Origin: Candidatus Wildermuthbacteria bacterium RIFCSPHIGHO2_01_FULL_49_22b
Lineage (GTDB): Bacteria > Patescibacteriota > Minisyncoccia > Minisyncoccales > UBA10102
DNA length: 48,342 bases
Assembly (NCBI GenBank): GCA_001823165.1
Contig: MHTT01000008.1
Span: 1-48,342, forward strand
Direction: 5' to 3'
Of this stretch, positions 3,001 through 48,342 are shown in pieces. The notes below the pieces were generated by a model. That model searched no databases. It was given only the letters and a program-made list of their open reading frames with translations, and was not told where the DNA came from. Each line of letters starts with the position of its first letter. Positions within the stretch are counted from its first letter, which is position 1. A program made the position numbers and the translations under genes.

Positions 3001-4312
3001 CTTAGTTGAAGACGGGGCAGTATGCATTTCGGGCGATGAGCTTTCAGATGAATCAGACGGCCTGTGCGATGCCTCGTCCATAAAGGTCAAGACCGATGTT
3101 CGGGACCTGGACTACGGCATTGCAGAGTTAATGCAGCTTCGTCCGGTGTTCTTCCGCTACAAGGAGGACTTCAAGCCGGACTTTCAGGCAGTGCGGGCCG
3201 GATTCATTGCCGAAGAAATGAACCTGGTTATACCCGAAGTTGTAACGTACGACAGCTACGATGAACACGGAATTCCCAACGGAGATCCTGACGGCATTGA
3301 CTACGGCAAACTGACCGCAGTGCTCACAAAAGCAATGCAGGAACAGCAAAAGCAGATTGAAGAACTGGAGCAATCGCTTCTGACTGTCGCTCAAAACATC
3401 TCTGGCGAACTGGTGAATGTGGACCCGGAATACTTCAGGCAGGGGCTTTCTTCCCTGGGTCTTGCGGTGAACACCAACGGAGTGCTGGAGGTAGACACTC
3501 TCAAAGCAAAAAAGGCGGTATTGGACACCCTTGAGTTAAAAGACCAGCTTACCGGAAAAGTATGGTGCACCTGGATTGAAAACGGAGAATGGCAAAAGGT
3601 GGAAGCAAACTGCGAGCAGATTTCGTACCTGAACGGCCAGCTTGTGATAAACGGGCAGCCCGCGGACTATGACGCCATTGCCGCGGCCAATGGCCTGGTT
3701 TTAGAGCCCCAGCCAGAGGAGCCCGCCCCTGATTCCCTTACCGACACGGTCTCTGATTCCATCTTTGACTCCACTCCCCCCATTATCTCCTTGCTCGGAC
3801 CAAGTTTGCTGGAGATTGAGCTGAACGCAGAATATGTGGATGCCGGAGCTACCGCGACAGATGACGTTGACGGCGACATTTCAGCAAACATTGCAGTAGA
3901 CAACCCAGTGGATACTTCCGTCCTTGGTGCTTATTTCGTCACCTACACTGTGTCTGATGCCGCGGGAAACAAGGCAACGCCAGCGACCCGTACCGTGAAC
4001 GTTGTAGAAGCGCTCTCTGCTCCAGAACCAGCTCTGGAACCAGAGCCAGAACCCCAGGACAGCATGCCTCCGGTCATCACTCTTCTTGGCGAAGCTGTGG
4101 TGGAGCTTGAAGTCGGTGGAATATACGAAGACGCTGGAGCCACCGCGGCAGACGATGTGGACGGAGACATCACTGCAAACATTATTGTCAGCAACCCCGT
4201 AGATACCGCTACTGTTGGCGCCTACACCGTTACCTATATCGTTTCTGACGCGGCCGGTAACGAGGCTGCCCCAGCCGCCCGCACCGTCAATGTCGTACTA
4301 AATCCGATTTAG
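2..4312 (+). CDS. Giant surface/tail-fibre-like protein, 5' partial (frame open to the window edge). Contains GNVGIGT..P repeat modules, a right-handed beta-helix (NosD/pectate-lyase-like) region, an internal peptidase-S74-like intramolecular chaperone domain, a coiled coil and two C-terminal DUF5011/Ig-like repeats.
   Basis: 1432-aa ORF with no stop back to nt 2. Recurrent GNVGIGTASPG/GRVGIGDTTPDA motifs. N/G/I-rich ~22-aa repeats (NNDISSNTNSGI, GNRIASNSSNGIEI, NNYINSNTGDGVRI) typical of parallel beta-helix. DLDYGIAELMQLRPVFFRYKED...GFIAEEMNLVIPEVV...IDYGKLTAVLTKAMQEQQKQIEELE matches the S74 chaperone-of-endosialidase pattern. Two PP(I/V)I(S/T)LLG...YxDAGATAxDDVDGDIxANI...GAYxVTYxVSDAAGN units match the DUF5011 pattern. 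Confidence 0.85.
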   Translation, partial: TSAAVERMRIDSSGKVGIGTATPGALLSVATDGANDAFRIGDNGAGNILTVQNGGNVGIGTASPGTKLEVNLGGVSITAIRALSGGVNNYTAIGIGRTSLEGALAIAAGAGQWSSFATTGDIILRSDTEDLILGARNATGSLRFATGFPDTEKMTILSGGNVGIGDTTPDALLEIVSSGGKNLFALTDTTDGDVFMVNNAGRVGIGDTTPDAALEIVTSGTTDAFHISSTAARDGDLFTITALGNVGIGTASPGVALELGADKSFRITGGTAFPASPSEGQMFFRTDTTQLYVYANAKWQADRTTATKIVAASDSSNEEKADYVADGTNDEVTIEAALAALPAGGGMVFLLEGTYSIGAAIDITQSKVSLVGSGKATILQRAANAIDVIVVGNAGTAYERVIISNLQIDGAKATHTSGANDGIVFNQKITNSEILDTWIHDNAGSGIYLLSGGTSGTANNDNVVRGNKILSNGGYGLVIATYGSRNRIENNDISSNTNSGILFSTGAYNNMAIGNRIASNSSNGIEIGRGEDNMIANNYINSNTGDGVRIAGDGNDTAIIGNYIELNTGDAIDTTTGTQASERHSIVSNLIIDDITLGGTGIHLVSSNRVTGNITINASSNDNYLAGNTISGTITDNGSNNVIQHSSQFKIESTSATVVPLTITADSLAAANGIALSVDGLTTGTGLDISSTSTAGGASGVSKLINLSRSGTNANASHTAYGLYSAVTNTGTTSTNIAGYFSASGATNNYAGIFENGSVGIGDTTPDALLEIVSSGGKNLFALTDTTDGDVFMVNNAGRVGIGDTTPDATLEVVTIGTTDAFHISSTAAGDGDLLTVTALGNVGIGAASPGSKLTIGSGSFDLSSQGSILNVGNSGSDLTDGVWSVARSNNQAQFSVQTFDDAGNTPPVLNLASALSDTIGTYTAVTNTTVLGRIDFQGADGTGFGTGTRIEGVATETFSGSATGAYLSFYTTDTGTNTKDERLRIDQDGGIFMYAMADNLVEDGAVCISGDELSDESDGLCDASSIKVKTDVRDLDYGIAELMQLRPVFFRYKEDFKPDFQAVRAGFIAEEMNLVIPEVVTYDSYDEHGIPNGDPDGIDYGKLTAVLTKAMQEQQKQIEELEQSLLTVAQNISGELVNVDPEYFRQGLSSLGLAVNTNGVLEVDTLKAKKAVLDTLELKDQLTGKVWCTWIENGEWQKVEANCEQISYLNGQLVINGQPADYDAIAAANGLVLEPQPEEPAPDSLTDTVSDSIFDSTPPIISLLGPSLLEIELNAEYVDAGATATDDVDGDISANIAVDNPVDTSVLGAYFVTYTVSDAAGNKATPATRTVNVVEALSAPEPALEPEPEPQDSMPPVITLLGEAVVELEVGGIYEDAGATAADDVDGDITANIIVSNPVDTATVGAYTVTYIVSDAAGNEAAPAARTVNVVLNPI
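500..765 (+). repeat. Intragenic direct repeat, copy 1 (~265 bp) inside the giant surface protein gene
   Basis: accccggacgctctcttggagattgtgtcttccggaggcaagaacc... recurs at offset +1791. About the first 130 nt are identical by eye and the rest is diverged. Confidence 0.9.
2291..2556 (+). repeat. Intragenic direct repeat, copy 2
   Basis: Same sequence as 500-765. It encodes the duplicated module TTPDALLEIVSSGGKNLFALTDTTDGDVFMVNNAGRVGIGDTTPDA. Confidence 0.9.
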
Positions 4313-4338
4313 CTATCCCCACCTAAATCGGATTTAGG
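4298..4338. repeat. REP-like palindrome doublet (family C) immediately upstream of the RayT-like gene
   Basis: ctaaatCCGatttag (4298-4312) and cctaaatCGGatttagg (4322-4338). Each is a 7-bp-arm perfect palindrome, and the two differ only in the central base (opposite orientations). The first copy contains the TAG stop and the last codons (LNPI*) of the giant protein. Confidence 0.85.
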
Positions 4339-4382: not shown

Positions 4383-5099
4383 ATGCCAAGAACAAAACCA
4401 GAAAAGGGAAAAATCTACCATATTTTCAACCGTGGCGTAGAAAAGCGGAACATCTTTATATCCGAAGGAGATCGCTGGAGATTTTTGCAGGGGATGTATT
4501 TGTTTAATAATGAAGATTCCACCACAAATCTTCTCTATCGTCTTGAGCAAAGAAAGGGCAAGATGCATTTTGGCATCCTGCGAGATTATATGCAGCGAGA
4601 AGGCGTTAAGCGCAAGCCCTTGGTACGCATTATGGCAGATTGCCTTAAGCATAATCACTTTCATTTTAGCATTGAAGAAACTCAAGAAAACGGCATTTCC
4701 CGTTTTATGCAAAAGCTGGGTATTGGATATACAAAATATTTTAATAAAAAATATGAGCGCGTAGGACCGCTGTTTCAAGGAAAGTTTAAACTGGTAGAGA
4801 TACAAAGCGATGCGCAGCTTATGTATCTTATTGCCTATATTAATGCGATTAACCCCGGCCAAGAGTTAGAGCCAGAACTAAAATCAGTAGCGCAAGATCC
4901 AGAGCAAATCCTTGAGTTTATTCAACATTACCCATGGAGTACTCATTTGGAGTATTTGGGCAAAAGAGATTCTATTATTATAGATAAAGGTGTTGCGGGA
5001 GAATTATTTGGTACCCCAATTGCTTACCGAAAGTTTGTAGAAGATATTGTAAAAGGCAAAAAAAGTTTTGGTTTGTCAAAGAAAGATTTTCTTGAGTAG
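4383..5099 (+). CDS. IS200/IS605-like Y1 (HUH) transposase of the REP-associated RayT type (COG1943-like)
   Basis: YHIFNRGVEKRNIF N-terminus. HUH motif in CLKHNHFHFSI. GPLFQGKFK and the LIAYINAINP Tyr helix. HYPWSTHLEY tail. Flanked on both sides by the same palindrome doublets. Confidence 0.8.
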   Translation: MPRTKPEKGKIYHIFNRGVEKRNIFISEGDRWRFLQGMYLFNNEDSTTNLLYRLEQRKGKMHFGILRDYMQREGVKRKPLVRIMADCLKHNHFHFSIEETQENGISRFMQKLGIGYTKYFNKKYERVGPLFQGKFKLVEIQSDAQLMYLIAYINAINPGQELEPELKSVAQDPEQILEFIQHYPWSTHLEYLGKRDSIIIDKGVAGELFGTPIAYRKFVEDIVKGKKSFGLSKKDFLE

Positions 5100-5101
5100 T
5101 T

Positions 5102-5138
5102 CCTAAATCCGATTTAGTTTTACTAAATCGGATTTAGG
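5102..5138. repeat. REP-like palindrome doublet (family C) immediately downstream of the RayT-like gene
   Basis: cctaaatCCGatttag (5102-5117) and ctaaatCGGatttagg (5123-5138), in the same CCG-then-CGG order as the upstream doublet. Confidence 0.85.
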
Positions 5139-5153
5139 AGAATTAGGAGAATT

Positions 5154-5969
5154 ATGAGAGAAATTTTAGAAAAAGTAAAAAATGGGGTGCTGGACGCGGT
5201 ATTTCCGGCAACCTGCATGGGTTGCGGTAGAGAAGGAAAGTATATCTGCCAAAGGTGCGAAGGTTTTGTAAGCGAAGTTGCTTTCATCTGCCCAGTATGT
5301 GAACAGTCGAGTTTTGCCGGAGAGCGGCACCAAACCTGCAAATCGTTCTATGGTTTTGATGGTTTGGTAAGCATTTGGGAATACGAGGGGCTCATGAAGA
5401 GTTTACTGCATTATATAAAGTACAATGGCATTACCCATGCTGCCAAAGAAACCACGGAGCGCGCATTTGAGGTGATTGGGCGCGACAGAGAACGATTTGG
5501 CGCATTTTTATCTTTTTTGTTATCTCAAGATACTTTTGTGACGTATGTGCCCATGTTCAAGAAAAAAGAGAGAAAAAGAGGGTTTAACCAGGCGGAGATA
5601 CTTGCAAGAGAGCTTGGAAAAATAGCCGGGAAAGAAACTCTTTGCGCCTTAGAGAAGATACATGATACAAAACCGCAGGTTGAGCTGAAGAAAGAAGAAC
5701 GGCTGGTAATCGTACAAGGCGCCTTTCAGACAACATTGCCCGCCTTTGCCGACCTGCCTGCTGGCAAGGTGGGGGCTTTGGCGGGCAGGCAAATTACAAA
5801 TCCAGACAATCAATTATCAATGGTCAATCATCAATGGTCGGCACCGCAGAAAGTGGTGCTGGTAGATGACGTGTGGACCACAGGAGCTACCATGAAAGAA
5901 TGCTGCAGGGTTTTGAAAAGGGCTGGCGCCAAAGAAATATGGGGGCTTACTATCGCAAGAACCCCCTAA
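5154..5969 (+). CDS. comF: ComF-family protein (phosphoribosyltransferase-like competence protein) carrying a ~30-40 aa extra segment
   Basis: N-terminal CxxC...CxxC zinc finger. RGFNQAE, VQGAF and VVLVDDVWTTGAT PRTase motifs. SD aggaga lies 5 nt upstream of the ATG. Confidence 0.85.
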   Translation: MREILEKVKNGVLDAVFPATCMGCGREGKYICQRCEGFVSEVAFICPVCEQSSFAGERHQTCKSFYGFDGLVSIWEYEGLMKSLLHYIKYNGITHAAKETTERAFEVIGRDRERFGAFLSFLLSQDTFVTYVPMFKKKERKRGFNQAEILARELGKIAGKETLCALEKIHDTKPQVELKKEERLVIVQGAFQTTLPAFADLPAGKVGALAGRQITNPDNQLSMVNHQWSAPQKVVLVDDVWTTGATMKECCRVLKRAGAKEIWGLTIARTP

Positions 5970-6040
5970 ATTTTCAATCAATGACCCAATTTCACAATTT
6001 TTCAATTGAACATTAAAACATTGATAATTCATTGAAAATT
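5967..6040. repeat. AT-rich TIR-bounded miniature element (family E), copy 1. It fills the comF-dprA spacer.
   Basis: Begins taaattttcaat (the TAA is the comF stop) and ends cattgaaaatt. aaattttcaat and attgaaaatt are reverse complements. It shares the blocks cccctaaattttcaat, caatgacc.aattt and tgataatt...cattgaaaatt with 43185-43271. Confidence 0.7.
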
Positions 6041-6046
6041 AGTGTC

Positions 6047-6952
6047 ATGGCTGACAGTATAACTAAAGAAAGTCCTCGATACCCAACACTACTCGGTGAA
6101 CTTAGGGACGCGCCAAAGCAGCTGTATTATAGGGGAAATTGGGACGGGATTTTTTCCGTCGAAGGCGGATCCGCCTCTGGCGGAGAAAAATGCCTGGCGG
6201 TTGTAGGCACGCGGAGAATGACCAGCTATGGAAAGCGCATGACCGAGCAGATCGTGGGTGAGGTTGCTGCGGCCGGGGTGACCGTTGTTTCTGGTTTTAT
6301 GTACGGTATTGATGCTGAAGCCCACAAAGCAGCTTTGAGAGCCGGCGGCAAAACCATTGCCGTAATGCCCTGCGGAATTGACGTTGTGCACCCAGAATAT
6401 CAGGCGGACTTATATCAAGAGATTTTAGATACGGGCGGCTTAGTGGTTTCAGAATACGAAGGCACGCATCCTGCTTTGTATTGGACGTTTCCACGCCGAA
6501 ATCGCATTGTAGCAGGCCTTTCAAAGGCAACGCTGGTAGTGGAGGCCGGTGAAGACAGCGGAGCATTGATTACCGCAGACCTTGCTAAAAAATACGGCAG
6601 AAAACTCTTTGCCGTGCCAAATCCTTTAACGAGCGCGGTTTCGCAAGGAGTAACGCGGTTGCTAAAAGAGGGTGCAACGATTGCAAGCAGCGCAGACGAT
6701 ATTTTGAAGTATTTTGGGTTTCGTACGCGGAGTAGGGTCAGACCCTACTCGCAAGTAGGGTCTGACCCTACTCCGCAGATTGCAGGCGAACTTGAGCAAA
6801 AGATTATGCAGGTGCTTTTCAAGGAATCAATGCAGATTGACGCGCTTGCCAGAAAACTTAAGATACCGGCAGCGCAGCTGGGAGCCGCAATTTCCATGTT
6901 GCAGTTGGAAGGATGCATAACAGAAGAACAGGGCAAATTATATGTTGTTTAA
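6047..6952 (+). CDS. dprA: DNA processing protein DprA
   Basis: LAVVGTRRMTSYGKRMT, VVSGFMYGIDAEAHKAAL, FPRRNRIVAGLS and a C-terminal winged-helix-like tail. The ORF is open from TTG 6032 but ATG 6047 is the more likely start. Confidence 0.9.
   Translation: MADSITKESPRYPTLLGELRDAPKQLYYRGNWDGIFSVEGGSASGGEKCLAVVGTRRMTSYGKRMTEQIVGEVAAAGVTVVSGFMYGIDAEAHKAALRAGGKTIAVMPCGIDVVHPEYQADLYQEILDTGGLVVSEYEGTHPALYWTFPRRNRIVAGLSKATLVVEAGEDSGALITADLAKKYGRKLFAVPNPLTSAVSQGVTRLLKEGATIASSADDILKYFGFRTRSRVRPYSQVGSDPTPQIAGELEQKIMQVLFKESMQIDALARKLKIPAAQLGAAISMLQLEGCITEEQGKLYVV
6727..6776. repeat. Family B palindromic doublet translated in frame within dprA
   Basis: gcggaGTAGGGTCaGACCCTACtcgcaaGTAGGGTCtGACCCTACtccgc. 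It is two 8-bp-arm hairpin units and the whole 50-mer is nearly self-complementary. It encodes [17 protein letters not shown] in the linker between the Rossmann and winged-helix domains. Confidence 0.85.
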
Positions 6953-8482: not shown

Positions 8483-8845
8483 ATGAGAGTACACAATATG
8501 ATAGGAGAGAGAGGGGAGGAGATTGCGCGCCAGTTTTTGGAGAACAAAGGATATACAATTATTGAGTGCAATTACAGGACAAAGAGAGCAGAAATTGATA
8601 TCATTGCAAAACATAAAAATAAACTAGTGTTTGTGGAGGTGCGAACAAAGCACCGCGAACAATACGGAACCCCAGAAGAAACTATTGATTATAAAAAACG
8701 CATGAGATTGAAAAAGAATGCCGCAGCTTATGTCCATCGAAAGAAATATTATGGGCCTTTTCGCATAGACGCCGTATGTCTGGTACTAGATGAGAACGCG
8801 GGGCTCCAGCGGATTAACCACTATGAAAACATTGTGGAAAACTAG
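8483..8845 (+). CDS. yraN: YraN-family (UPF0102) putative endonuclease
   Basis: GERGEEIARQFLENKGYTIIECNYRTKRAEIDIIAK...VFVEVRT...IDAV pattern. ATG 8498 is an alternative start. Confidence 0.85.
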   Translation: MRVHNMIGERGEEIARQFLENKGYTIIECNYRTKRAEIDIIAKHKNKLVFVEVRTKHREQYGTPEETIDYKKRMRLKKNAAAYVHRKKYYGPFRIDAVCLVLDENAGLQRINHYENIVEN

Positions 8846-8905
8846 GCGAGACCAAGGATTCCTTGGTCTCGCCTAAGAGCTAAAACTAAGGAGCTCATGG
8901 GAACA
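8762..8905 (+). repeat. 144-bp direct repeat, left copy (yraN 3' end, hairpin, and start codon of the next ORF)
   Basis: Identical to 10847-10990 except one mismatch (8790 t versus 10875 c) by my alignment. Contains the 13-bp-stem hairpin ggcgagaccaagg-att-ccttggtctcgcc (8845-8873). Confidence 0.9.
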
Positions 8906-10773: not shown

Positions 10774-10930
10774 TTATGAAAAACGCATGAGACTGCAGCG
10801 AAACGCAAGAGCGTATATTCACCGAACAAAGTACCGCGGCCCATACCGCATAGACGCCGTATGTCTGGTACTAGACGAGAACGCGGGGCTCCAGCGGATT
10901 AACCACTATGAAAACATTGTGGAAAACTAG
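10722..10930 (+). pseudogene. Displaced, duplicated 3' fragment of a yraN-like gene
   Basis: It encodes ...HEQYGSPEETIDYEKRMRLQRNARAYIHRTKYRGPYRIDAVCLVLDENAGLQRINHYENIVEN, parallel to residues ~53-120 of the intact YraN. The N-terminal catalytic part is absent. Confidence 0.8.
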
Positions 10931-10990
10931 GCGAGACCAAGGATTCCTTGGTCTCGCCTAAGAGCTAAAACTAAGGAGCTCATGGGAACA
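10847..10990 (+). repeat. 144-bp direct repeat, right copy
   Basis: See 8762-8905. The hairpin copy is at 10930-10958. Confidence 0.9.
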
Positions 10991-15552: not shown

Positions 15553-15562
15553 ACAAGAGACC

Positions 15563-15586
15563 ATGTGTGAAACCTGGTTTCACACA
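15563..15586. repeat. Family D palindrome, copy 1, 11 nt after the stop of the TPR protein
   Basis: atgtgtgaaacctggtttcacaca is identical to 42247-42270. The arms tgtgtgaaacc/ggtttcacaca are perfect reverse complements. Confidence 0.9.
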
Positions 15587-15658: not shown

Positions 15659-15763
15659 GATGTTCAGTTAAATATTTTGAAAGGTTCCCAAACCTTGGCC
15701 TCTTTTTTTGCATAAGCAGTAAGTCGCCGCCAGGCCCTTTTTGTATTGGGACCTTTGTTTTGT

Positions 15764-18700
15764 ATGCCTGTTCCGCAGCCTTCCTTTAAAAACTTTGGCA
15801 AATCCGGCGTTCATTTTCCCTTGCCCTATCTTTTGCAGGTACAGCAGGACAGCTGGAGCCAATTTTGGCGCGGGGATTTTAAAGAACTGCTGCAGGAAAT
15901 CTCGCCCATATACGACCACACGAAAAAAGAGTTTGAGCTGTGGTTTGTGGACTTTAAACTCGGCGAGCCCAACTACGCCACGGACCTGGAGGCCAAAGAA
16001 AACGATGATTCTTTTGAGGCGCCCCTGCGCGTGAAGGTGCGTTTGGTGAACCTCAAAACCAAAGAGCAAAAAGAGCAGGAGATTTTCCTTACTGATTTCC
16101 CCTTGATGACCGAGCGGGGCACGTTCATTATCAACGGGGTGGAGCGAGTCGCCATTTCCCAGCTCATTCGTTCTCCGGGGGCCTTCTTTACCGGACAAGA
16201 AGCCAAGGTAACAAGAAAGCTGTTCGGAGCAAAAATCATTCCCAACCGCGGGGCCTGGCTGGAATTTGAAACGGAAAACTCGGGATTCATCGGTGTTCGC
16301 ATTGACCGAAAAAGAAAGGCGCCCGCCACCACGCTCCTGAAGGCCTTTGGCCTGGAGACTGAGGAAGCCATACAGAGCGCCTTTTCTGACGTGGACAAAG
16401 GCAGCGTGAGTTACATCGCGGAAACCCTGAAAAAAGATACCGCCAAAGGGCAGGGAGAGGCCTTAATGGAGATTTACCGACGGTTGCGCCCCGGCGACTA
16501 CGTCACTCCCGACACCGCAAAAGAACTGATAGGGAACATGTTCTTTAATTTTGAACGATATGACCTTTCCCGGGTGGGGCGATGGAAAACGCTGCAGCGC
16601 CTGCCCGCGTTAAAAAATCCAAAATCCAAAACAGAAGAGGAAGTTTCTCTTAAAGACAGAGTGCTGAAATTAGAAGACATCATTGAGGTTTTGCGGGAAA
16701 TCATCCGTCTCAACAATGCGCCGGGGGCCGTGCCCGACCAGATTGACCACCTGGGAAATCGAAGGGTGAGAACGTTCGCCGAGTTCTTGCAGAACCGCCT
16801 GCGCGTCGGGTTCATGAGAATGGAACGCATCGTGAAAGACAGGATGTCCACCCTTGACGCAAGCATGTTGACGCCTGCCCAGCTGGTGAACCCCAGGCCG
16901 GTCATGGCCATGGTCAAGGAGTTCTTTACGTCATCCCAGATAACGCAGTTCATGGACAATGAAAACCCGCTGGCCGAACTGGAGCACAAAAGAAGGGTGT
17001 CTGCCACGGGACCCGGGGGATTGACCCGAGAGCGGGCCGGCTTTGAGGTGCGGGACGTGCAGCCCTCCCACTACGGAAGGATTTGCCCCATTCAGACCCC
17101 CGAGGGCCCCAACATCGGACTCGTTGGGCATATGGCAAGCTACGCACGCATTAACTCGTACGGATTCCTGGAAACTCCGTACTTTGAGGTGCGCAAAGAG
17201 AAGGTGACCGAAAGGATTAAGTATCTGAACGCGTTTGAAGAAGAGCAGGAGGTTATAGCGCACGCGGGAATTCCCCTGGATGCAAAGGGCGCCATTATCC
17301 CCGACAAGGTGGAAGCCAGGGTTAGGGGGGAAGCGGGAATGGCCGCAAAGAAGGACGTCACGTACATTGACGTGGGCCCCGAGCAGTCCATTTCCGTTGC
17401 CACGGCCCTGATTCCCTTTTTGAGAAACGACGACGCAAACCGCGCACTCATGGGTTCTAACATGCAGCGCCAGGCCGTTCCCTTGCTGCGGGCCGAAAGT
17501 CCTTTGGTGGGAACTGGCCTTGAGGAAAAGGTGGCAAAGGATTCCGGTTTGGCCGTGGTGGCGCAGGAAGACGGGGTTGTAAAGGAAGTTGACGCAAGAC
17601 ATATTACGGTTAAGCCCGCAACCGAGAAATCGCATACCTATGAGCTCAAAAACTTTGTAAGGACAAACCAGTATACTTCCTTTCATCAGCGTCCCATCGT
17701 GGATGTGGGCCAAAAGATAAAAAAAGGACAGGTGATAGCAGACGGGGGCGCCATTGACCAGGGACGCCTGGCTTTGGGAACCAACCTGCTGGTTGCCTTC
17801 ATTTCCTGGCGGGGAGGCAACTACGAGGACGCCATTATCTTGTCTGAACGCCTGGTAAAGGATGACCGGTACACCTCAATCCATATTGAGGATTTTGTGG
17901 CCGACATCAGGGAAACCAAGCTGGGCCCAGAACTGACCACATCAGACATTCCCAACGTAGGGGAGGAGAAATTAAAGGATTTGGACGAAGAGGGAGTGGT
18001 GCGCGCGGGGGCTGAAGTGGGGCCCAACGACATTCTGGTTGGTAAGATTTCTCCCAAAGGGGAAGCCGATCTCACGTCGGAAGAACGGCTCTTGCGAGCC
18101 ATATTCGGGGAAAAGGCGCGGGACGTGAAAGACAGCTCTTTGCTGATGCCCCACGGAAAGCGTGGGCGGGTGGTTTCCGTAAAAGTGTTTGAACGCGTCC
18201 AGGGCCATAAGCTAGAGCCCGGGGTGATAAAGCGCATCCATGTTGAGGTGGCAGAGCTTAGAAAAGTGCAGCCGGGAGACAAGCTGGCAGGAAGACACGG
18301 CAACAAAGGGGTCATTTCCTTTGTACTCCCCGAAGAGGATATGCCCTTTATGGAAGACGGAACCCCCGTGGATATTGTTTTAAACCCGTTGGGGGTTGCT
18401 TCCCGAATGAACATCGGCCAAATCCTGGAAACGCATCTTGGCTGGGCGGCAAAGAAGCAAGGGTACTTTGCTTTGACCCCGGGCCTGGCGGGAGCAAATG
18501 AAAAAGACATCAAAGCGGAACTCAAGGCAGCCGGGCTCCCGGAAGACGGTAAGGTGACCCTGTTTGACGGCAGGGACGGAACGTCCTTCCCCCAGAAAAT
18601 CACGGTGGGCATGATATATATGATGAAGCTCATTCACATGGTGGAAGACAAGATTCACATGCGCTCCATTGGCCCCTATTCTTTGATTACCCAGCAGCCC

Positions 18701-18997
18701 CTGGGAGGGAAAGCGCAGTTTGGAGGACAGCGGTTCGGGGAAATGGAGGTGTGGGCGCTGGAAGGATACGGGGCCTCTCACATCCTCCAGGAAATGCTTA
18801 CCATCAAGTCAGACGATGTTCCGGGAAGGGCAGCCACGTATGAAAGCATCCTGCGGGGACAGCCCATTCAAACCCCCAACCTGCCTGCCTCCTTTTCGCT
18901 TTTACTTGCTGAATTGAGGTCGCTTGGCCTTAACATTGAAGTAAAGGAGACGCAACGGGCGGAAAGAAAACAAGAAGACGAAAGAGAAAAATCCTAA
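15764..18997 (+). CDS. rpoB: DNA-directed RNA polymerase subunit beta
   Basis: Full-length conserved RpoB (FMDNENPLAELEHKRRVSATGPGGL, NMQRQAVPL, GRHGNKGVIS, GGQRFGEMEVWALEGYGA). The ORF is open from TTG 15746 and ATG 15764 is preferred. Confidence 0.97.
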   Translation: MPVPQPSFKNFGKSGVHFPLPYLLQVQQDSWSQFWRGDFKELLQEISPIYDHTKKEFELWFVDFKLGEPNYATDLEAKENDDSFEAPLRVKVRLVNLKTKEQKEQEIFLTDFPLMTERGTFIINGVERVAISQLIRSPGAFFTGQEAKVTRKLFGAKIIPNRGAWLEFETENSGFIGVRIDRKRKAPATTLLKAFGLETEEAIQSAFSDVDKGSVSYIAETLKKDTAKGQGEALMEIYRRLRPGDYVTPDTAKELIGNMFFNFERYDLSRVGRWKTLQRLPALKNPKSKTEEEVSLKDRVLKLEDIIEVLREIIRLNNAPGAVPDQIDHLGNRRVRTFAEFLQNRLRVGFMRMERIVKDRMSTLDASMLTPAQLVNPRPVMAMVKEFFTSSQITQFMDNENPLAELEHKRRVSATGPGGLTRERAGFEVRDVQPSHYGRICPIQTPEGPNIGLVGHMASYARINSYGFLETPYFEVRKEKVTERIKYLNAFEEEQEVIAHAGIPLDAKGAIIPDKVEARVRGEAGMAAKKDVTYIDVGPEQSISVATALIPFLRNDDANRALMGSNMQRQAVPLLRAESPLVGTGLEEKVAKDSGLAVVAQEDGVVKEVDARHITVKPATEKSHTYELKNFVRTNQYTSFHQRPIVDVGQKIKKGQVIADGGAIDQGRLALGTNLLVAFISWRGGNYEDAIILSERLVKDDRYTSIHIEDFVADIRETKLGPELTTSDIPNVGEEKLKDLDEEGVVRAGAEVGPNDILVGKISPKGEADLTSEERLLRAIFGEKARDVKDSSLLMPHGKRGRVVSVKVFERVQGHKLEPGVIKRIHVEVAELRKVQPGDKLAGRHGNKGVISFVLPEEDMPFMEDGTPVDIVLNPLGVASRMNIGQILETHLGWAAKKQGYFALTPGLAGANEKDIKAELKAAGLPEDGKVTLFDGRDGTSFPQKITVGMIYMMKLIHMVEDKIHMRSIGPYSLITQQPLGGKAQFGGQRFGEMEVWALEGYGASHILQEMLTIKSDDVPGRAATYESILRGQPIQTPNLPASFSLLLAELRSLGLNIEVKETQRAERKQEDEREKS

Positions 18998-19085
18998 GAA
19001 ATCCTAAATCCGATTTAGAGAAATCCTAGATTTAGTAAGAAATCCTAAATCCGATTTAGTAAGAAATCCTAAATCCGATTTAGAA
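18988..19085 (+). repeat. Tandem array of family C REP-like palindromes in the rpoB-rpoC spacer
   Basis: cctaaatccgatttag at 19003-19018, 19044-19059 and 19068-19083, with a degenerate copy at 19024-19035, at ~24-nt period (aagaaatcctaaatccgatttagt). All are in the CCG orientation. The rpoB TAA stop (18995-18997) lies in a partial unit aaatcctaag. Confidence 0.85.
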
Positions 19086-36229: not shown

Positions 36230-39157
36230 ATGGCACAGGATTTCATTAAAATCAGGGGAGCACGGGTTCACAACCTCAAGAACATTGACGTTGATATCCC
36301 CAAGGGCAAGCTTGTGGTGATTACCGGGCTTTCCGGGTCAGGGAAAAGCTCTCTTGCCTTTGATACTCTGTATGCTGAAGGACAGAGAAGGTACGTTGAG
36401 AGTTTGTCCGCATACGCGCGGCAATTCCTGGGCGTCATGCAAAAGCCCGATGTGGATTCCATTGAGGGCATTAGTCCTGCCATTGCCATTGACCAGAGAA
36501 AGGGAGCTCACAACCCTCGTTCTACCGTTGGGACCATTACGGAGATATATGACTATCTCCGTCTTTTGTTTGCAAGGATAGGAGTTCCGCACTGTCCCAA
36601 CTGCGGCAGGGAAGTCAAGCGCCAGTCGGTTTCCTCCATTGCAGACCAGGTGCAGAAACTTCCCGCCAAAGACGAGATTGCCATTCTTGGTCCTGTAATC
36701 AGGGAGAAAAAAGGGGAGCACCGGGGAGTTTTAGAAGAAATCCAGCGTTCCGGGTTTGTGAGGGCTCGCATTGACGGCATTGTGGAGCGCGTTGAAGAGG
36801 CCCTGGAAAAGGAGTTGGACCGCAAAAAGAAGCATTCCATTGAAGTGCTCGTGGACCGGCTAACCATAGACAAGGATCTGGACCGCCCCCGCCTCATCGA
36901 TTCTTTAGAGACCGCCTTAAAGCTTGGGAAAGGGCTGGTGATTGTGCGGGCACAGTCACCAACAATTGACAATTCACAATTAACAATTAGCAAGAAGAAT
37001 CGTCGTCAAAAGTCAACAGTCAATAGTCAAAAGTCAGGAGAAGACCTGGTCTTCAGCGAGCGCTTTGCCTGCGAGCAATGCAGTATTTCCCTGCCAGAGA
37101 TTGAGCCGAGAATGTTTTCTTTCAACTCTCCCTTTGGGGCGTGTCCTGCGTGCCAGGGATTAGGAGAAAAGCTGGAGGTTGATCCCAAACTGGTGATTCC
37201 CAACCCCCGGCTTTCCCTTGCCGAGGGCGCCATTTTCCCCTGGGCGCACGCTTCCCATAAGATAGGACGCCAGGGATTCTTTTGGTGGAAACTGGAAGAC
37301 CTGGCGAAAGAAAGGAAGTTTTCTTTGAATACTCCAGTAGAGGAGCTTTCTCCTAAAGTCATTAGCCTGGTCTTGCAAGGAGATAGAGGGTTTGCCGCCC
37401 GCAGAAGCGGGCGAGCCTCACCCGCCTCTGAAGAGGCGAGGTGGGAAGGAGTGATTCCCTGGCTGGAACGAAGATACCATGAGACCGACTCTGAATACGC
37501 CAGGGAAGAGATTGAGCAGTATATGATAGAGCGCTTGTGCGAAATGTGCCAGGGAAAGAGGTTGAAACCCGAGGTGGTGGCGGTAACCGTGGGGGCAAAG
37601 TCCATTCACGGGGTCGTAAACCTGCAGCTCAACCGCGTCAAAGAGTTTTTTGGCAAACTCTTCTTGAAAGAGCATGAGAAAAAGATAGCAAGCCCCATTG
37701 TAAAAGAGATTGTGAATCGCCTTCAGTTTTTAATTGATGTGGGCTTGGAGTATCTCACCCTGGCGAGAAAAGCCGCGACCCTGTCAGGAGGAGAAGAACA
37801 GAGAATACGGCTCGCCACCCAGATTGGCTCAAAGCTTACTGGGGTCTTGTACATATTGGACGAGCCCTCTGTCGGTTTGCATGCCAGAGACCAGCATCGC
37901 CTCATTGCGACCTTGCAGCAATTGCGCTCTTTGGGCAATACCATTGTAGTAGTAGAGCATGACCCCCAAACCATACGGTCAGCTGACTGGGTGGTGGATA
38001 TTGGCCCTGGAGCAGGAAAGCACGGGGGCCGTGTCACTTTTACCGGAACGCCAAAACAGCTGCTCAAGTCGCGCACACTTACCGGAGATTACCTAGCGGG
38101 GCGCAGAACTGTTCAGATAAGCAAAGTAGGGTCAGACCCTACTCGGGTGAGTAGGGTCAGACCCTACTCACAGCTGATTGTCCAGGGGGCAACGCACAAC
38201 AACTTAAAGAACATTGACGTTGCAATACCGCTGGAAAGGATGGTGTGCGTGACCGGGGTTTCAGGGTCTGGCAAAAGTTCTCTGGTCAGCGATATTGTGG
38301 CAAAAGCCCTGCTGCAGAAGTTCTACAGGGCAAAGGAAGAACCGGGAGAGCATAAGGCAATTTTAGGCACGGAGCATCTTAACAAGGTGGCGCTGGTGGA
38401 CCAGTCGCCCATTGGCAGAACTCCGCGTTCCAACCCCGCAACCTACACAGGGTCCTTTTCTGTCATACGGGATTTGTTTGCTTTATGCAAAGAGGCCAGG
38501 GTGCGGGGCTACAAGCCGGGAAGATTTTCTTTTAATGTAAAGGGAGGAAGATGCGAGTCCTGCGAGGGCCAGGGGCTAAAAAAGATTGAGATGTACTTTT
38601 TACCGGACGTGTATGTGGAGTGCGAGGAATGCCAGGGACAGCGATACATGAAAGAGGTCCTGGAGGTGGAATACCGAGGCAAAAACATTGCCCAGGTTCT
38701 GGCAATGACCGTGGAGGAAGCCCTGGCGTTTTTCAGAAACATTCCCGCCCTGACAGCGAAGTTGAAGACCTTAAACGACGTGGGACTCTCGTATGTGGAG
38801 CTGGGACAGCCCGCCCCCTCCCTTTCTGGGGGAGAGGCCCAGCGAGTAAAGCTGGCAACCGAGCTTGCAAAGAAAGCAACAGGAAAGACCCTGTACATTC
38901 TAGACGAGCCAACCACGGGTCTTCATTTTGACGACGTGAAAAAACTGCTTCAGGTGTTGGGGGAACTGACGGACAAGGGAAACACGGTATTGATTATTGA
39001 GCACAATCTTGATGTGGTGCGCAATTCGGACTGGATTATTGACCTGGGACCAGAGGGAGGAGAAAAAGGGGGGAAATTGGTCGCAGAGGGAACCCCAAGA
39101 GATGTTGCCAAAATAAAAAAGAGCTATACGGGGCAGTACTTGCGTAAGTTCAGCTGA
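36230..39157 (+). CDS. uvrA: Excinuclease ABC subunit A, carrying two in-frame repeat insertions
   Basis: Two ABC modules ([51 protein letters not shown]), zinc modules (CPNCG, CEQC...[12 protein letters not shown]...CEECQGQRY), 975 aa. Confidence 0.97.
36963..37036 (+). repeat. Family A heptamer-array hairpin element translated within uvrA
   Basis: caa TTGACAA TTCACAA TTAACAA TTAGCAA gaagaat cgtcgtc AAAAGTC AACAGTC AATAGTC AAAAGTC a, encoding [25 protein letters not shown]. Confidence 0.85.
38125..38168. repeat. Family B palindromic doublet translated within uvrA
   Basis: aGTAGGGTCaGACCCTACtcgggtgaGTAGGGTCaGACCCTACt, encoding [17 protein letters not shown]. These are the same two peptide readings as in dprA but in swapped order. 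Confidence 0.85.
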
Positions 39158-39385
39158 TTTGGTATGATTTTTGTAGATTTTTCTCGGAGATGCATATAAG
39201 GCGCGGGACATCCTTTCGCGGAATGTTACCCCTGCGCTAAAGGACATCCGCAAGATGCTATCGTGGATCTTTCCGCCTTTGCTTTTTGCCGCAGGTGCTT
39301 TGCGACTTGGAACCCAGACCCAGAGGCGAGACCTTCTGAAAAACGAGGATGGATAAGGAGATTCTTCGGATGGCACAGCTCTTGA

Positions 39386-39419
39386 CCCCCACCCTTTGCA
39401 TTTATGCAAAGGGTGGGGG
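39386..39419. repeat. Perfect 16-bp-arm palindrome upstream of the groES promoter
   Basis: cccccaccctttgcat-tt-atgcaaagggtggggg, followed by ttgactttttt. Confidence 0.85.
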
Positions 39420-39447
39420 TTGACTTTTTTGCGGGGCTGTGTAAGAT
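39420..39447 (+). promoter_or_regulatory. Candidate sigma-70 promoter of groES-groEL
   Basis: TTGACT, 16-nt spacer, TAAGAT, located just upstream of the CIRCE-like inverted repeat. Confidence 0.5.
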
Positions 39448-39522: not shown

Positions 39523-39816
39523 ATGCAGATAAAGCCATTGGCAGATCACGTTTTGATTGAGCCCTTAGAGGAGGAGCAAAAGACCAAGACCGGCATTCTT
39601 TTGCCGGAAACAGCGGAACAAGAAAGGTCAGAACAGGGGACCGTTGTCGCCGTGGGTCCCGGCAAGAAAGGCAAAGACGGCAAGGTGATTCCTTTGGAGG
39701 TAAAGGCGGGGGACCTTGTACTGTTTGCCAAGTACGGTCCAAGCGAGGTGAAGGTGGACGGCAAAGAATACCTTATTGCAGAAGAAAAAGACATCCTCGC
39801 GATTTTAGAGCGCTAA
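39523..39816 (+). CDS. groES: Co-chaperonin GroES
   Basis: MQIKPLADHVLIEPLEEEQKTKTGILLPE...GDLVLFAKYG...ILAILE. Confidence 0.96.
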   Translation: MQIKPLADHVLIEPLEEEQKTKTGILLPETAEQERSEQGTVVAVGPGKKGKDGKVIPLEVKAGDLVLFAKYGPSEVKVDGKEYLIAEEKDILAILER

Positions 39817-41586
<1,770 letters not shown>

Positions 41587-42246: not shown

Positions 42247-42270
42247 ATGTGTGAAACCTGGTTTCACACA
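42247..42270. repeat. Family D palindrome, copy 2, between the lemA stop and the htpX start
   Basis: atgtgtgaaacctggtttcacaca, identical to 15563-15586. Confidence 0.9.
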
Positions 42271-42281
42271 TCCTTGAGCTT

Positions 42282-47714: not shown

Positions 47715-47999
47715 TCCGCGGTAGCTCAGCTGGTAGAGCGGCTCGCTGTGAGTAAAGTTGCAGCTTCTTGGAGCAATCCAGGTTGAAAAACGGGGTTAAT
47801 TGCGGGAAACCTAAAGCGAAAGCCAAGGCAATCCGCAGCCAAGGGATGTAACATTTTGCCTTGCAAAATTGTACGTTCAAGGTTCAGAGACTATACGCCC
47901 CGCACCCCTTTGGGGTGATGAGATAGTCCACGCCAGTATGAAAGTATTGGGTTGCGTGTAACGAGATGGTCGTAGGTTCGAATCCTACCCGCGGAGCCA
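47715..47999 (+). tRNA. tRNA-Asn(GUU) interrupted in the anticodon loop by a group I intron. Exons are 47715-47749 and 47959-47999 (CCA encoded).
   Basis: The spliced product is UCCGCGG UA GCUC AGCUGGUA GAGC G GCUCG CUGU|UAA CGAGA UGGUC GUAGG UUCGAAU CCUAC CCGCGGA G CCA. U1-A72, G73 and overall similarity to bacterial tRNA-Asn support the call. One 27-43 mismatch. Confidence 0.85.
47750..47958 (+). ncRNA. Group I self-splicing intron (209 nt, tRNA-intron/IC3-like, no ORF)
   Basis: The canonical core elements are all present: P aattgcgggaaa (~47798), Q aatccgcagc (47830-47839), R gttcagagacta (47882-47893) and S agatagtcc (47921-47929). P1 pairs exon gcugU (47745-47749) with IGS Gcagc (47760-47764), giving a U-G wobble at the 5' splice site. 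The intron ends in G (47958). Confidence 0.88.
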
Positions 48000-48342
48000 A
48001 ATAGGATGATACGAGTTCTCCGCCTCGGGGCTTCGCCCCTCGGCGGGCAAATCGGCGAGAATTTTCCACGACTTTTTGGGTTCAAAGCAAATCGCTTGCA
48101 AGCGCAAAACGCGGTTCGCCGCGCGAAGCGCCGAGGCAACAAACTCACAACATACAATTTGGCTCCGAACGCTGAACGAAATCCGAACATTTTTTAGCGA
48201 AAATCCGAACGCTGAATTTTGACGCTCCGCCCCGCCGCCGCTCGCTACCACTCGCCGCACTACAGAAAAATACTCTTTGCTCTTTTCGTTTTGCGCGCGC
48301 CCAATTTTTTCTTCTAAAAGGAAAAGAATGTTTTGCTTGGCT

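Follow-up and report, generated by a model that had tools for sequence, protein, structure and literature searches.

Our analysis of a 48,342-nt stretch of the genome of Candidatus Wildermuthbacteria bacterium RIFCSPHIGHO2_01_FULL_49_22b (contig MHTT01000008.1; this whole stretch is hereafter the window) reveals two doublets of a short perfect palindrome, family B, one translated in frame within dprA and the other translated in frame within uvrA. The two doublets are probably GTAG-type repetitive extragenic palindromic (REP) elements, arranged in pairs that resemble REPINs (REP doublets forming hairpins) and kept in frame in permissive linkers of the two proteins.

The family-B unit is the 17-nt palindrome GTAGGGTC-N-GACCCTAC, with the anatomy GTAG-GGTC-N-GACC-CTAC (19–25 nt where the stem is extended). 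Four exact copies are present in the window, forming two tight doublets; specifically, the pattern GTAGGGTCNGACCCTAC has exact matches starting at positions 6732, 6755, 38126, and 38151, and has no match in 100 dinucleotide-preserving shuffles of the window. Outside the four units the 8-mer GTAGGGTC is present nowhere else in the window, and a relaxed family-B pattern recovers no additional copies there.

The 50-mer in dprA reads exactly as it was quoted in an earlier description of this DNA, made from the sequence alone (the first-pass annotation), and its characterization there as two hairpin units that are nearly self-complementary as a whole is borne out: the entire 50-mer is a perfect inverted repeat, with 23-nt arms that are 100% complementary and a 4-nt loop. 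The same doublet is present in uvrA as described (38125–38168), forming an inverted repeat with 20-nt arms that are 95% complementary, and the stem of its second unit is extended to 11 bp (38147–38171). Each doublet encodes a 17-residue peptide in frame, and both translations that had been given are correct. Folding predictions, a check that the first-pass annotation had proposed, indicate that both doublets fold far better than shuffled sequences, with free energies (DNA/RNA) of −30/−49.6 kcal/mol for the dprA doublet (z ~ −11) and −20.7/−37.4 kcal/mol for the uvrA doublet (z ~ −8). A comparison with Rfam identified no family at either doublet.

Reading frames and linker sites of dprA and uvrA

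A family-B unit can be read as VGSDPT or as SRVRPY, two unrelated peptides, and the third frame contains TAG on either strand, so that only two frames are permissible, as the first-pass annotation had stated. The start-to-start spacing of the units is 23 nt in dprA, yielding SRVRPY followed by VGSDPT, and 25 nt in uvrA, yielding VGSDPT followed by SRVRPY; the swapped order of the peptides is a consequence of these two spacings. The use of both frames in swapped order, which had been presented as telling, is therefore correct as a matter of fact but is not independent evidence, because it follows from spacing and because such frame use is logically required of any copy that preserves an open reading frame (ORF). 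A constraint on the loop bases had gone unnoticed in the first-pass annotation. A unit read in the SRVRPY frame has its loop base at the first position of an NGA codon, and a T in the loop would give a TGA stop. The dprA doublet has loops A and then T, as in a true inverted pair, and is read as SRVRPY (loop A) and then VGSDPT (loop T). In the uvrA doublet, the unit in the SRVRPY frame has loop A where T is expected; this sole break in the inverted symmetry of the doublet is the outcome to be expected of selection against a stop codon.

Both doublets are located in inter-domain linkers. Pfam assigns DNA_processg_A to residues 9–218 and DprA_WH to residues 245–301 of the 306-aa dprA ORF, placing the doublet (approximately residues 232–249) in the linker that joins the Rossmann-type domain of DprA to its C-terminal winged helix. 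In an AlphaFold2 (AF2) model of the window DprA, the predicted local distance difference test (pLDDT) score is below 50 only at residues 38–44 and 229–245; residues 229–245 correspond to the doublet-encoded peptide, which is thus predicted to lie in a disordered segment, and residues 38–44 are likewise palindrome-derived. The uvrA doublet encodes approximately residues 632–647, in a hypervariable segment between TGDYLAGRR and a second, 14-residue sequence, and sits in the linker between nucleotide-binding domains I and II (NBD-I/NBD-II) of UvrA. An alignment of 120 UvrA homologues (910–1021 aa) is variable at the doublet site; the linkers of both proteins are hypervariable in 120 homologues each, and in many of the homologues the linker is shorter and free of palindromes. 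For DprA, UvrA, and the Y1 protein discussed below, the nearest homologues come from Patescibacteria/Parcubacteria, several of them named Candidatus Wildermuthbacteria.

The two genes contain further lineage-specific segments. In dprA, a second palindrome-derived in-frame insertion is present at 6150–6189 (TTTTTTCCGTCGAAGGCGGATCCGCCTCTGGCGGAGAAAA, encoding IFSVEGGSASGGEK), with an equivalent in only some homologues (P0003, P0008, P0033, P0040, and P0071); it accounts for the low-pLDDT residues 38–44 and is thus predicted to be disordered. In uvrA, an insertion of ~30 aa at 36960–37045 is of low complexity and is built of CAATT/AGTCAA-type repeats, and an insertion of ~17 aa at 37400–37445 contains the palindrome CGCCTCTGAAGAGGCG; both are missing from most close homologues. 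A TTG start for dprA at position 6032 gave no match in an exact-protein look-up, and the start is called at the ATG at 6047.

The linker of dprA holds different palindromes in different lineages. In the window it holds the family-B doublet. In locus L134 it holds CCTAAATCCGATTTAGG-taaaa-CTAAATCGGATTTAGG, encoding PKSDLGKTKSDLG; this is family A, a perfect palindrome (CTAAATC-C/G-GATTTAG) that is also present elsewhere in the window. In L124 the linker holds CCTAAACGAGATTTAGG-agct-CCTAAATCTCGTTTGGG, of a family that is also found upstream of the L124 Y1 gene and is abundant in the intergenic DNA of that genome; in L128 it holds CCTAAGCTAAGCTTAGG-agct-CCTAAGCTTAGCTTAGG, of the same family as the units flanking the L128 Y1 gene; and in L133 it holds CCTAAACCAGGTTTAGG-atct-CCTAAACCTGGTTTAGG. 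The palindromes of these last three lineages are other variants of CCTAA-N7-TTAGG. L126 has an imperfect G+C hairpin, and L127 has no hairpin and a linker of 63 nt. The occupant of one permissive site, drawn from the palindrome repertoire, thus changes from lineage to lineage, and the comparison with relatives that the first-pass annotation had suggested for dprA returned other palindromes, or none, at the same site.

The linker of uvrA behaves similarly. A relative whose UvrA is 81% identical carries a doublet with GCGGGGTC arms, the opposite frame order, and a spacing of ~30 nt (our own count) as compared with 25 nt in the window; because arm sequence, frame order, and spacing all differ, the two doublets are not related by simple orthology. 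In the same linker, the uvrA of L017 has a family-B doublet with the dprA-type spacer, the first unit of which is split by a nested, unrelated palindrome. In L017, three different palindromes are stacked in the linker (6476–6587), with AGGGCCATTGCTTCCCC-T-GGGGAAGCAATGGCCCT apparently nested in the loop of a family-B unit. Different occupants, or none, are therefore found at orthologous sites in both genes. The nearest palindrome-free UvrA homologues fall short by only 6 residues, and for both genes doublet-bearing proteins differ from relatives in net length by only approximately +3 to +6 residues. The doublets accordingly look more like replacement or turnover in linkers that already held hairpins than like single clean insertions. 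One palindrome-free DprA homologue with 83% identity (P0002) was considered as an empty site and was not used, as it may be chimeric: its N-terminal two-thirds are nearly identical to the window protein, its C-terminal third is nearly identical to P0023, and it has no contig on record.

A RAYT-like gene, family A, and family B in other genomes

Directly upstream of comF, the window contains a gene for a Y1 protein with similarity to REP-associated tyrosine transposases (RAYTs; coordinates of this gene and of the other principal features are in Table 1). The protein matches Pfam PF01797 (Y1_Tnp, IS200-like) with 25.4 bits (gathering score 23). Its HUH motif is at H92-F93-H94, and H92/H94, Y148/Y152, and N157-P158 are invariant in 35 homologues. 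An AF2 model built on 35 homologues has a pLDDT of 86, and its top Foldseek match in the PDB is 4er8_A, the Escherichia coli RAYT with a REP hairpin (E = 7e-5, TM(target) 0.68), followed by ISDra2 and IS608 TnpA. The Y1_Tnp/HUH fold, HUH motif, and catalytic tyrosine expected of a RAYT are therefore all present. The protein has approximately 4,000 homologues, the close ones being 70–79% identical and uniformly ~238 aa. The gene order Y1-comF-dprA-comM is kept in all seven lineages retrieved and, in most of them, extends through UPF0102, TPR genes, and rpoB (the six relatives are five retrieved for synteny plus L113, from the source population). Each retrieved locus has one Y1 gene, except for a paralogue in L124, and lineage-specific palindromes flank the gene in relatives. 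The Y1 gene of the window thus follows the single-copy, vertically inherited, housekeeping-like pattern that has been reported for RAYTs (PMC5581495).

In the window, doublets of family A bracket the Y1 gene, and a cluster of three further units in a spacer elsewhere demonstrates dispersed, intergenic copies of family A in this genome. The Y1 gene and its bracketing doublets match the layout of a "REPtron", the term used by Di Nocera et al. 2013 (PMC3733652) for a RAYT gene flanked by its own repeats. The Y1 protein is a candidate for the class of enzyme that would mobilize the palindromes. In L124 (GCA_022563395.1, 671-kb contig), the second, divergent Y1 paralogue (5404–6102) is flanked on both sides by 42-nt inverted doublets (5292–5333 and 6099–6140), and, because this paralogue is itself doublet-flanked, several REPtrons per genome are possible in the Candidate Phyla Radiation (CPR).

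To assess the distribution of family B, we scanned one genome per GTDB species for the 17-mer and obtained at least 112 stretches (loci L001–L112). Among the matches listed, the 17-mer is dense in several metagenome-assembled genomes of Betaproteobacteria/Burkholderiales/Casimicrobiaceae, with the consensus gaaaaGTAGGGTCnGACCCTACttttc and often in pairs 20–50 nt apart, with scattered occurrences in Thermoanaerobaculia and across many CPR lineages (Saccharibacteria, Vogel-, Wolfe-, Lipton-, and Curtissbacteria, Sungiibacteriota, and other Parcubacteria). High-GC doublets among these matches lie directly downstream of stop codons; intergenic copies therefore exist in other genomes, which is the REP-like behaviour that the first-pass annotation had in view. 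The unit is multi-copy in other genomes, and ~40% of the CPR copies are intragenic (a rough count, among the matches listed). Intragenic examples include an in-frame doublet in mnmA (ATGHYARLSRVRPYQVGSDPTMH, L119) and single in-frame units in the segment of recG encoding the wedge domain (L056), in alaS (L095), and in the uvrA of a relative (L017), where the linker is the one occupied in the window.

Family B is also associated with Y1 genes. In particular, a Y1 homologue in L101 (Saccharibacteria; 33% identity to the window Y1 protein, HUH motif "HIH") has family-B units on both sides, 34 nt upstream and 20 nt downstream, matches NCBIfam REP_Tyr_transpos with E = 4e-13 and 49.5 bits (cut-off 80), and contains an in-frame family-B unit of its own (1232–1248, LLLVGSDPTRH). 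In L075 (Saccharibacteria), the flanks of the Y1 gene are the variant GGAGGGTCAGACCCTCC, and a canonical family-B unit is located in frame inside the gene (763–779). Because family-B units flank the L101 homologue, with variant flanks in L075, family B is a bona fide RAYT-associated palindrome in CPR, though not beside the Y1 gene of the window.

The surroundings of the units are informative about where they sit. Among the matches listed, ~40% of family-B units have three or more extra complementary flanking bases, as compared with 1.6% expected, and some units carry 11–24 locus-specific complementary flanking bases, which suggests that family-B units may occupy the apices of hairpins that were already in place. 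Around the units, neither a conserved target sequence nor a direct target duplication was seen. Five CPR loci (L012, L041, L052, L087, and L107) have a common asymmetric flank, GTAGGGTCnGACCCTAC-TATTGC; two of them, L012 and L052, represent one site, orthologous between two genomes, at which the palindrome is identical but the flanks have diverged.

For a lineage-specific REP, one would not expect the 17-mer to be identical across phyla; the identity could stem from convergence on a RAYT-recognizable hairpin or from horizontal transfer. A more tentative possibility, which we consider rather unlikely, is that the 17-mer common to CPR and certain Betaproteobacteria reflects inter-phylum transfer of a REP/RAYT system, for example between episymbiont and host. 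A hidden Markov model built from CPR proteins found no RAYT beside the Betaproteobacterial copies in their 8-kb loci, a result that carries no information given the distance of the model and the shortness of the loci. Viral contigs contain only four copies of family B, and on that account we see no link to phages. A metagenome scan with the doublet pattern returned 4 loci, with the window's own contigs not among these.

The window contains comF, dprA, comM, UPF0102, TPR proteins, rpoB, and rpoC and, further along, uvrC, uvrA, groES, and groEL. It also contains several other repeats. Two identical 33-nt palindromes (TAGGCGAGACCAAGGA-T-TCCTTGGTCTCGCCTA, at 8843–8875 and 10928–10960) lie inside a 261-nt duplication (8645–8905/10730–10990, 87% identity), and the TAG of the palindrome at 8843 is the stop codon of a UPF0102 ORF (8483–8845). 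The hairpin TGTGTGAAACC-TGG-TTTCACACA occurs twice in post-ORF spacers (15564–15586 and 42247–42271), and perfect hairpins occur in post-ORF spacers at 39385–39420 (ACCCCCACCCTTTGCAT..ATGCAAAGGGTGGGGGT) and 39798–39823 (CGCGATTTTAG..CTAAAATCGCG); these post-ORF hairpins may be terminators or further REP-like families. Rfam identifies a group I intron at 47740–47950 (92.5 bits), within approximately 47716–48003, whose flanks resemble, by eye, the two halves of a tRNA gene (GCGGTAGCTCAGCTGGTAGAGC ... GGTTCGAATCCTACCCGCGGAGCCA); ARAGORN called no tRNA at these intron-flanking halves. The public scaffold L113 has ~100 extra bases (16258–16359) relative to window positions 15558–15560, probably a scaffolding gap.

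Table 1. Positions in the window of the family-B doublets, their host genes, the Y1 gene, and the family-A repeats.
Feature	Positions	Strand	Details
Family-B doublet in dprA	6727–6776		units 6732–6748 (loop A) and 6755–6771 (loop T); spacer TCGCAA; outer flanks GCGGA/TCCGC
Family-B doublet in uvrA	38125–38171		units 38126–38142 and 38151–38167, both loop A; spacer TCGGGTGA
dprA	6047–6952	+	host of first doublet; ATG at 6047; Pfam
uvrA	36230–39157	+	host of second doublet; UvrA domains by Pfam
RAYT-like Y1 (HUH) tyrosine transposase gene	4383–5099	+	238 aa; PF01797
Family-A doublet (CTAAATCCGATTTAG ... CTAAATCGGATTTAG)	4298–4338		45 nt upstream of Y1 gene
Family-A inverted doublet	5101–5139		18-bp arms, 100% complementary; begins 2 nt past Y1 stop codon
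Cluster of three family-A units	19004–19083		spacer after rpoB-like ORF 15746–18997

Mobile elements and the alternatives to them

In the reading that we favour, the doublets would belong to a class of small, non-autonomous, hairpin-forming mobile DNA that is handled on single-stranded DNA by HUH/Y1 transposases of the RAYT type. Copies would arise anywhere in the genome, and the intragenic survivors would be those that present a frame without stops (VGSDPT, or SRVRPY provided that the loop base is not T), keep the frame of the host gene, and fall in a permissive disordered linker. Copies would be found in the linker between the DprA domains and in that between NBD-I and NBD-II of UvrA because only such insertions survive, and the encoded peptides would be passengers. 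Existing hairpins may, in addition, attract new insertions. The proposal of the first-pass annotation, that a palindromic element entered ORFs and was then filtered by selection, is supported by the intergenic copies, the two frames, the hypervariable linkers, the varied occupants, and the RAYT-like gene that family B flanks in another CPR genome.

Several observations weigh against this reading. The identical DprA protein (ATG start at 6047) is encoded on 12 public contigs, and five of these 12, retrieved from five different ENA and JGI assemblies, have DNA that is 99.8–99.98% identical to the window, with no difference at the family-B palindromes at either site. Presence/absence polymorphism was thus not seen at either doublet among the five near-identical assemblies, and, because the five are identical at both sites, recent movement is unsupported. 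The closest homologues without the element are only ~77–81% identical, so an empty site cannot be reconstructed from them, and the small net length change implies that there was no simple addition to an empty site. Within the window, family B is present at two loci only, both intragenic; the Y1 gene is flanked by family A, not by family B; family A has no GTAG tag; and no second Y1 gene is present in the window. The cognate enzyme of family B, if it is still present, would lie outside the window. The only NCBIfam match of the window Y1 protein, REP_Tyr_transpos (NF047646), scores 17.9 bits against a cut-off of 80 bits, which makes the protein a distant RAYT relative rather than a curated member, and a sequence search of the protein against the PDB returned no match. 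Finally, several lineages have a long hairpin at one and the same position in dprA, which could mean that the hairpin itself is selected.

That last point is the core of the strongest rival, in which the hairpin is selected in the dprA and uvrA linkers and the REP-like sequence is merely its building material; it might serve to stabilize or process the mRNA of the comF-dprA-comM operon, to make translation pause between domains, or to bind a protein. A strong hairpin is present at the same place in the dprA linker in six of seven lineages, with unrelated stems and RNA folding energies of −29 to −50 kcal/mol, the anchors of the linker enclose exactly 72 nt in five of seven, and the palindromes are perfect though the flanking coding sequence has diverged by 20–30%. 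However, L127 has no hairpin and a linker of 63 nt, many homologues have shorter linkers without a palindrome, family-B units are also found in unrelated genes and in intergenic DNA, and perfect arms are equally expected from recent insertion or from arm-to-arm correction. A back-translation test, in which homologue peptides were scored for compatibility with DNA hairpins of at least 12 or at least 17 bp and compared with shuffled proteins, bears on both sides. Hairpin-compatible peptides (at least 17 bp) are concentrated in the DprA linker, where 22 of 36 matches fall within ~8% of the DprA length, but overall they are not commoner than in shuffled proteins (DprA 36 versus 27; UvrA 49 versus 73.5); because the test is too permissive as a global statistic, only the positional concentration in DprA is informative. 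Taken together, we regard selection on the hairpin as unlikely, though as the most serious of the competing accounts. The proposal that the motif of 8–17 nt is a DNA uptake sequence or another recognition site draws on the copies in dprA and uvrA, on that in recG of another CPR genome, and on the adjacent competence gene cluster (comF, dprA, comM). It is very unlikely, given that the 48-kb window has just four units, clustered at two spots, and lacks isolated 8-mer half-sites, that several other palindrome families coexist in the genome, and that the 17-mer is also present in distant phyla and brackets a Y1 transposase gene in L101.

The remaining two alternatives have little in their favour. 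VGSDPT recurs in several unrelated proteins, as would be expected if VGSDPT/SRVRPY were a functional protein motif and the palindrome its by-product; yet the DNA is read in two frames to give unrelated peptides and has non-coding copies, the dprA peptide is in a segment predicted to be disordered, and close homologues carry an entirely different sequence at the site. Moreover, the variant GCGGGGTCTGACCCCGC keeps the palindrome and alters the peptide to AGSDPA, and no relatives were seen that keep the peptide with non-palindromic codons, making a conserved peptide highly improbable. A sequencing or assembly artefact, for example a foldback chimera, which the first-pass annotation had named as one circumstance that would undo its interpretation, is less credible still and has a negligible probability: library artefacts can create perfect long inverted repeats, but doublet DNA that matches in five different assemblies excludes an assembly or foldback origin, both ORFs stay open with conserved domains downstream, and the units are found in many unrelated genomes.

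An extension of the mobile-element reading can be offered tentatively, and we consider it rather unlikely: the DprA linker, and to a lesser degree the UvrA linker, would be a heritable hairpin "landing pad", held by a long hairpin at one spot throughout a Parcubacteria clade and repeatedly overwritten by the active REPIN family of each lineage. If so, RAYT-like enzymes would insert or replace at hairpin apices, or the hairpin as such would be selected. The hairpin-apex idea fits the nested palindrome of L017, the locus-specific stem extensions of 11–24 nt around some units, and the equal 72-nt linker in five lineages.

Relation to known systems and significance

GTAG-tagged REP/REPIN-RAYT systems are reportedly the subject of work by Nunvar (2010) and by Bertels & Rainey (2011). 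The family-B doublets share with REPs a 5′ GTAG tag and a short G+C stem-loop, and with REPINs the tight inverted dimers that fold as one long hairpin (in dprA, uvrA, L119, and L017). Several families and several Y1 genes per genome are a further likeness, as is the palindrome-flanked, housekeeping-like Y1/HUH gene, single-copy in the loci retrieved, which recalls a REPtron. In contrast, the host here is a member of CPR/Patescibacteria, and, atypically, the GTAG pairs with CTAC in a perfect 17-nt palindrome rather than forming an unpaired tag. Family B is not beside the window Y1 gene, unlike the arrangement in L101, which has family B on both sides; the window Y1 protein is a divergent 238-aa form below the NCBI cut-off for RAYTs; and the intragenic proportion of CPR copies (~40%, the rough count above) appears high for a REP family.

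Palindromic elements of reduced-genome bacteria are a second comparison, reportedly described for Rickettsia (Rickettsia palindromic elements, RPEs) by Ogata et al. in 2000. The likeness lies in the in-frame insertion of palindromes in permissive regions of many genes of a reduced-genome bacterium, with intergenic copies too. The elements themselves are different, in that RPE-1 is ~100–150 bp and Rickettsia-specific, whereas the unit here is 17 nt, the doublet is 44–50 nt, and the sequence is unrelated, so that family B is not an RPE. No transposase is associated with RPEs or CGTC REPs, in contrast to the RAYT-like gene found here. IS200/IS605 TnpA, with its palindrome-associated transposable elements (PATEs) and transposable elements of the miniature inverted-repeat type (MITEs), is alike in having an HUH/Y1 enzyme that recognizes subterminal hairpins in single-stranded DNA. 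However, the window Y1 gene lacks an insertion sequence-like copy number, has conserved synteny, and has no tnpB, and the repeats are symmetrical palindromes rather than distinct left and right ends. DNA uptake sequences (the DUS of Neisseria and the USS of Pasteurellaceae) are similarly short motifs that can form inverted pairs and whose intragenic copies are enriched in genome-maintenance genes; they occur at ~1 per kb as one dominant motif, a density far above that of family B, which is therefore not a member of this class and which differs also in its several unrelated companion families, its association with a transposase-like gene, and its sharing across phyla.

The closest precedent is the description of GTAG-tagged REP families, head-to-head dimers, and intragenic copies by Di Nocera et al. 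2013 (PMC3733652). Known copies there are mostly near gene ends, with intragenic dimers too, notably in uvrA, repair genes, and genes for tRNA enzymes. Specifically, intragenic REPs are recorded in uvrA/B/C/D, recBCD, polA, dnaE2, tRNA synthetases, and tRNA-modifying enzymes, plausibly in flexible linkers, and the dimers encode ~15–30 residues; RPE-4 and RPE-6 are equated with CGTC REPs. The survey covers more than 80 species in 8 phyla, and CPR/Patescibacteria are not named in the parts of it that we read. Intragenic GTAG-REP dimers, including in uvrA, are already known, and the present case matches the description closely; what is added here is that the host is a CPR bacterium, that palindrome families turn over at one site, and that the 17-mer is identical across phyla. 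A limited literature search found no report linking REPs with CPR/Patescibacteria.

REP/REPIN-RAYT systems have been characterized mainly in Proteobacteria, and the present case extends the range of these "domesticated" replicators to the ultra-small, streamlined genomes of CPR. The full anatomy seen there comprises a RAYT-like gene passed on vertically, palindrome families that differ between lineages, and doublets. In such gene-dense genomes, a large share of copies would end up translated in essential repair and competence proteins; for the intragenic hairpins of uvrA and dprA, a regulatory or mutator effect has been the subject of speculation by Di Nocera et al. 2013 (PMC3733652). For annotation, palindromes of this kind would account for many lineage-specific insertions in CPR proteins (PKSDLG, VGSDPT, SRVRPY, and GGSASGG) and call for caution before such segments are read as functional motifs. 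The repeated re-use of one linker would, moreover, provide a natural system for the study of target choice by HUH enzymes.

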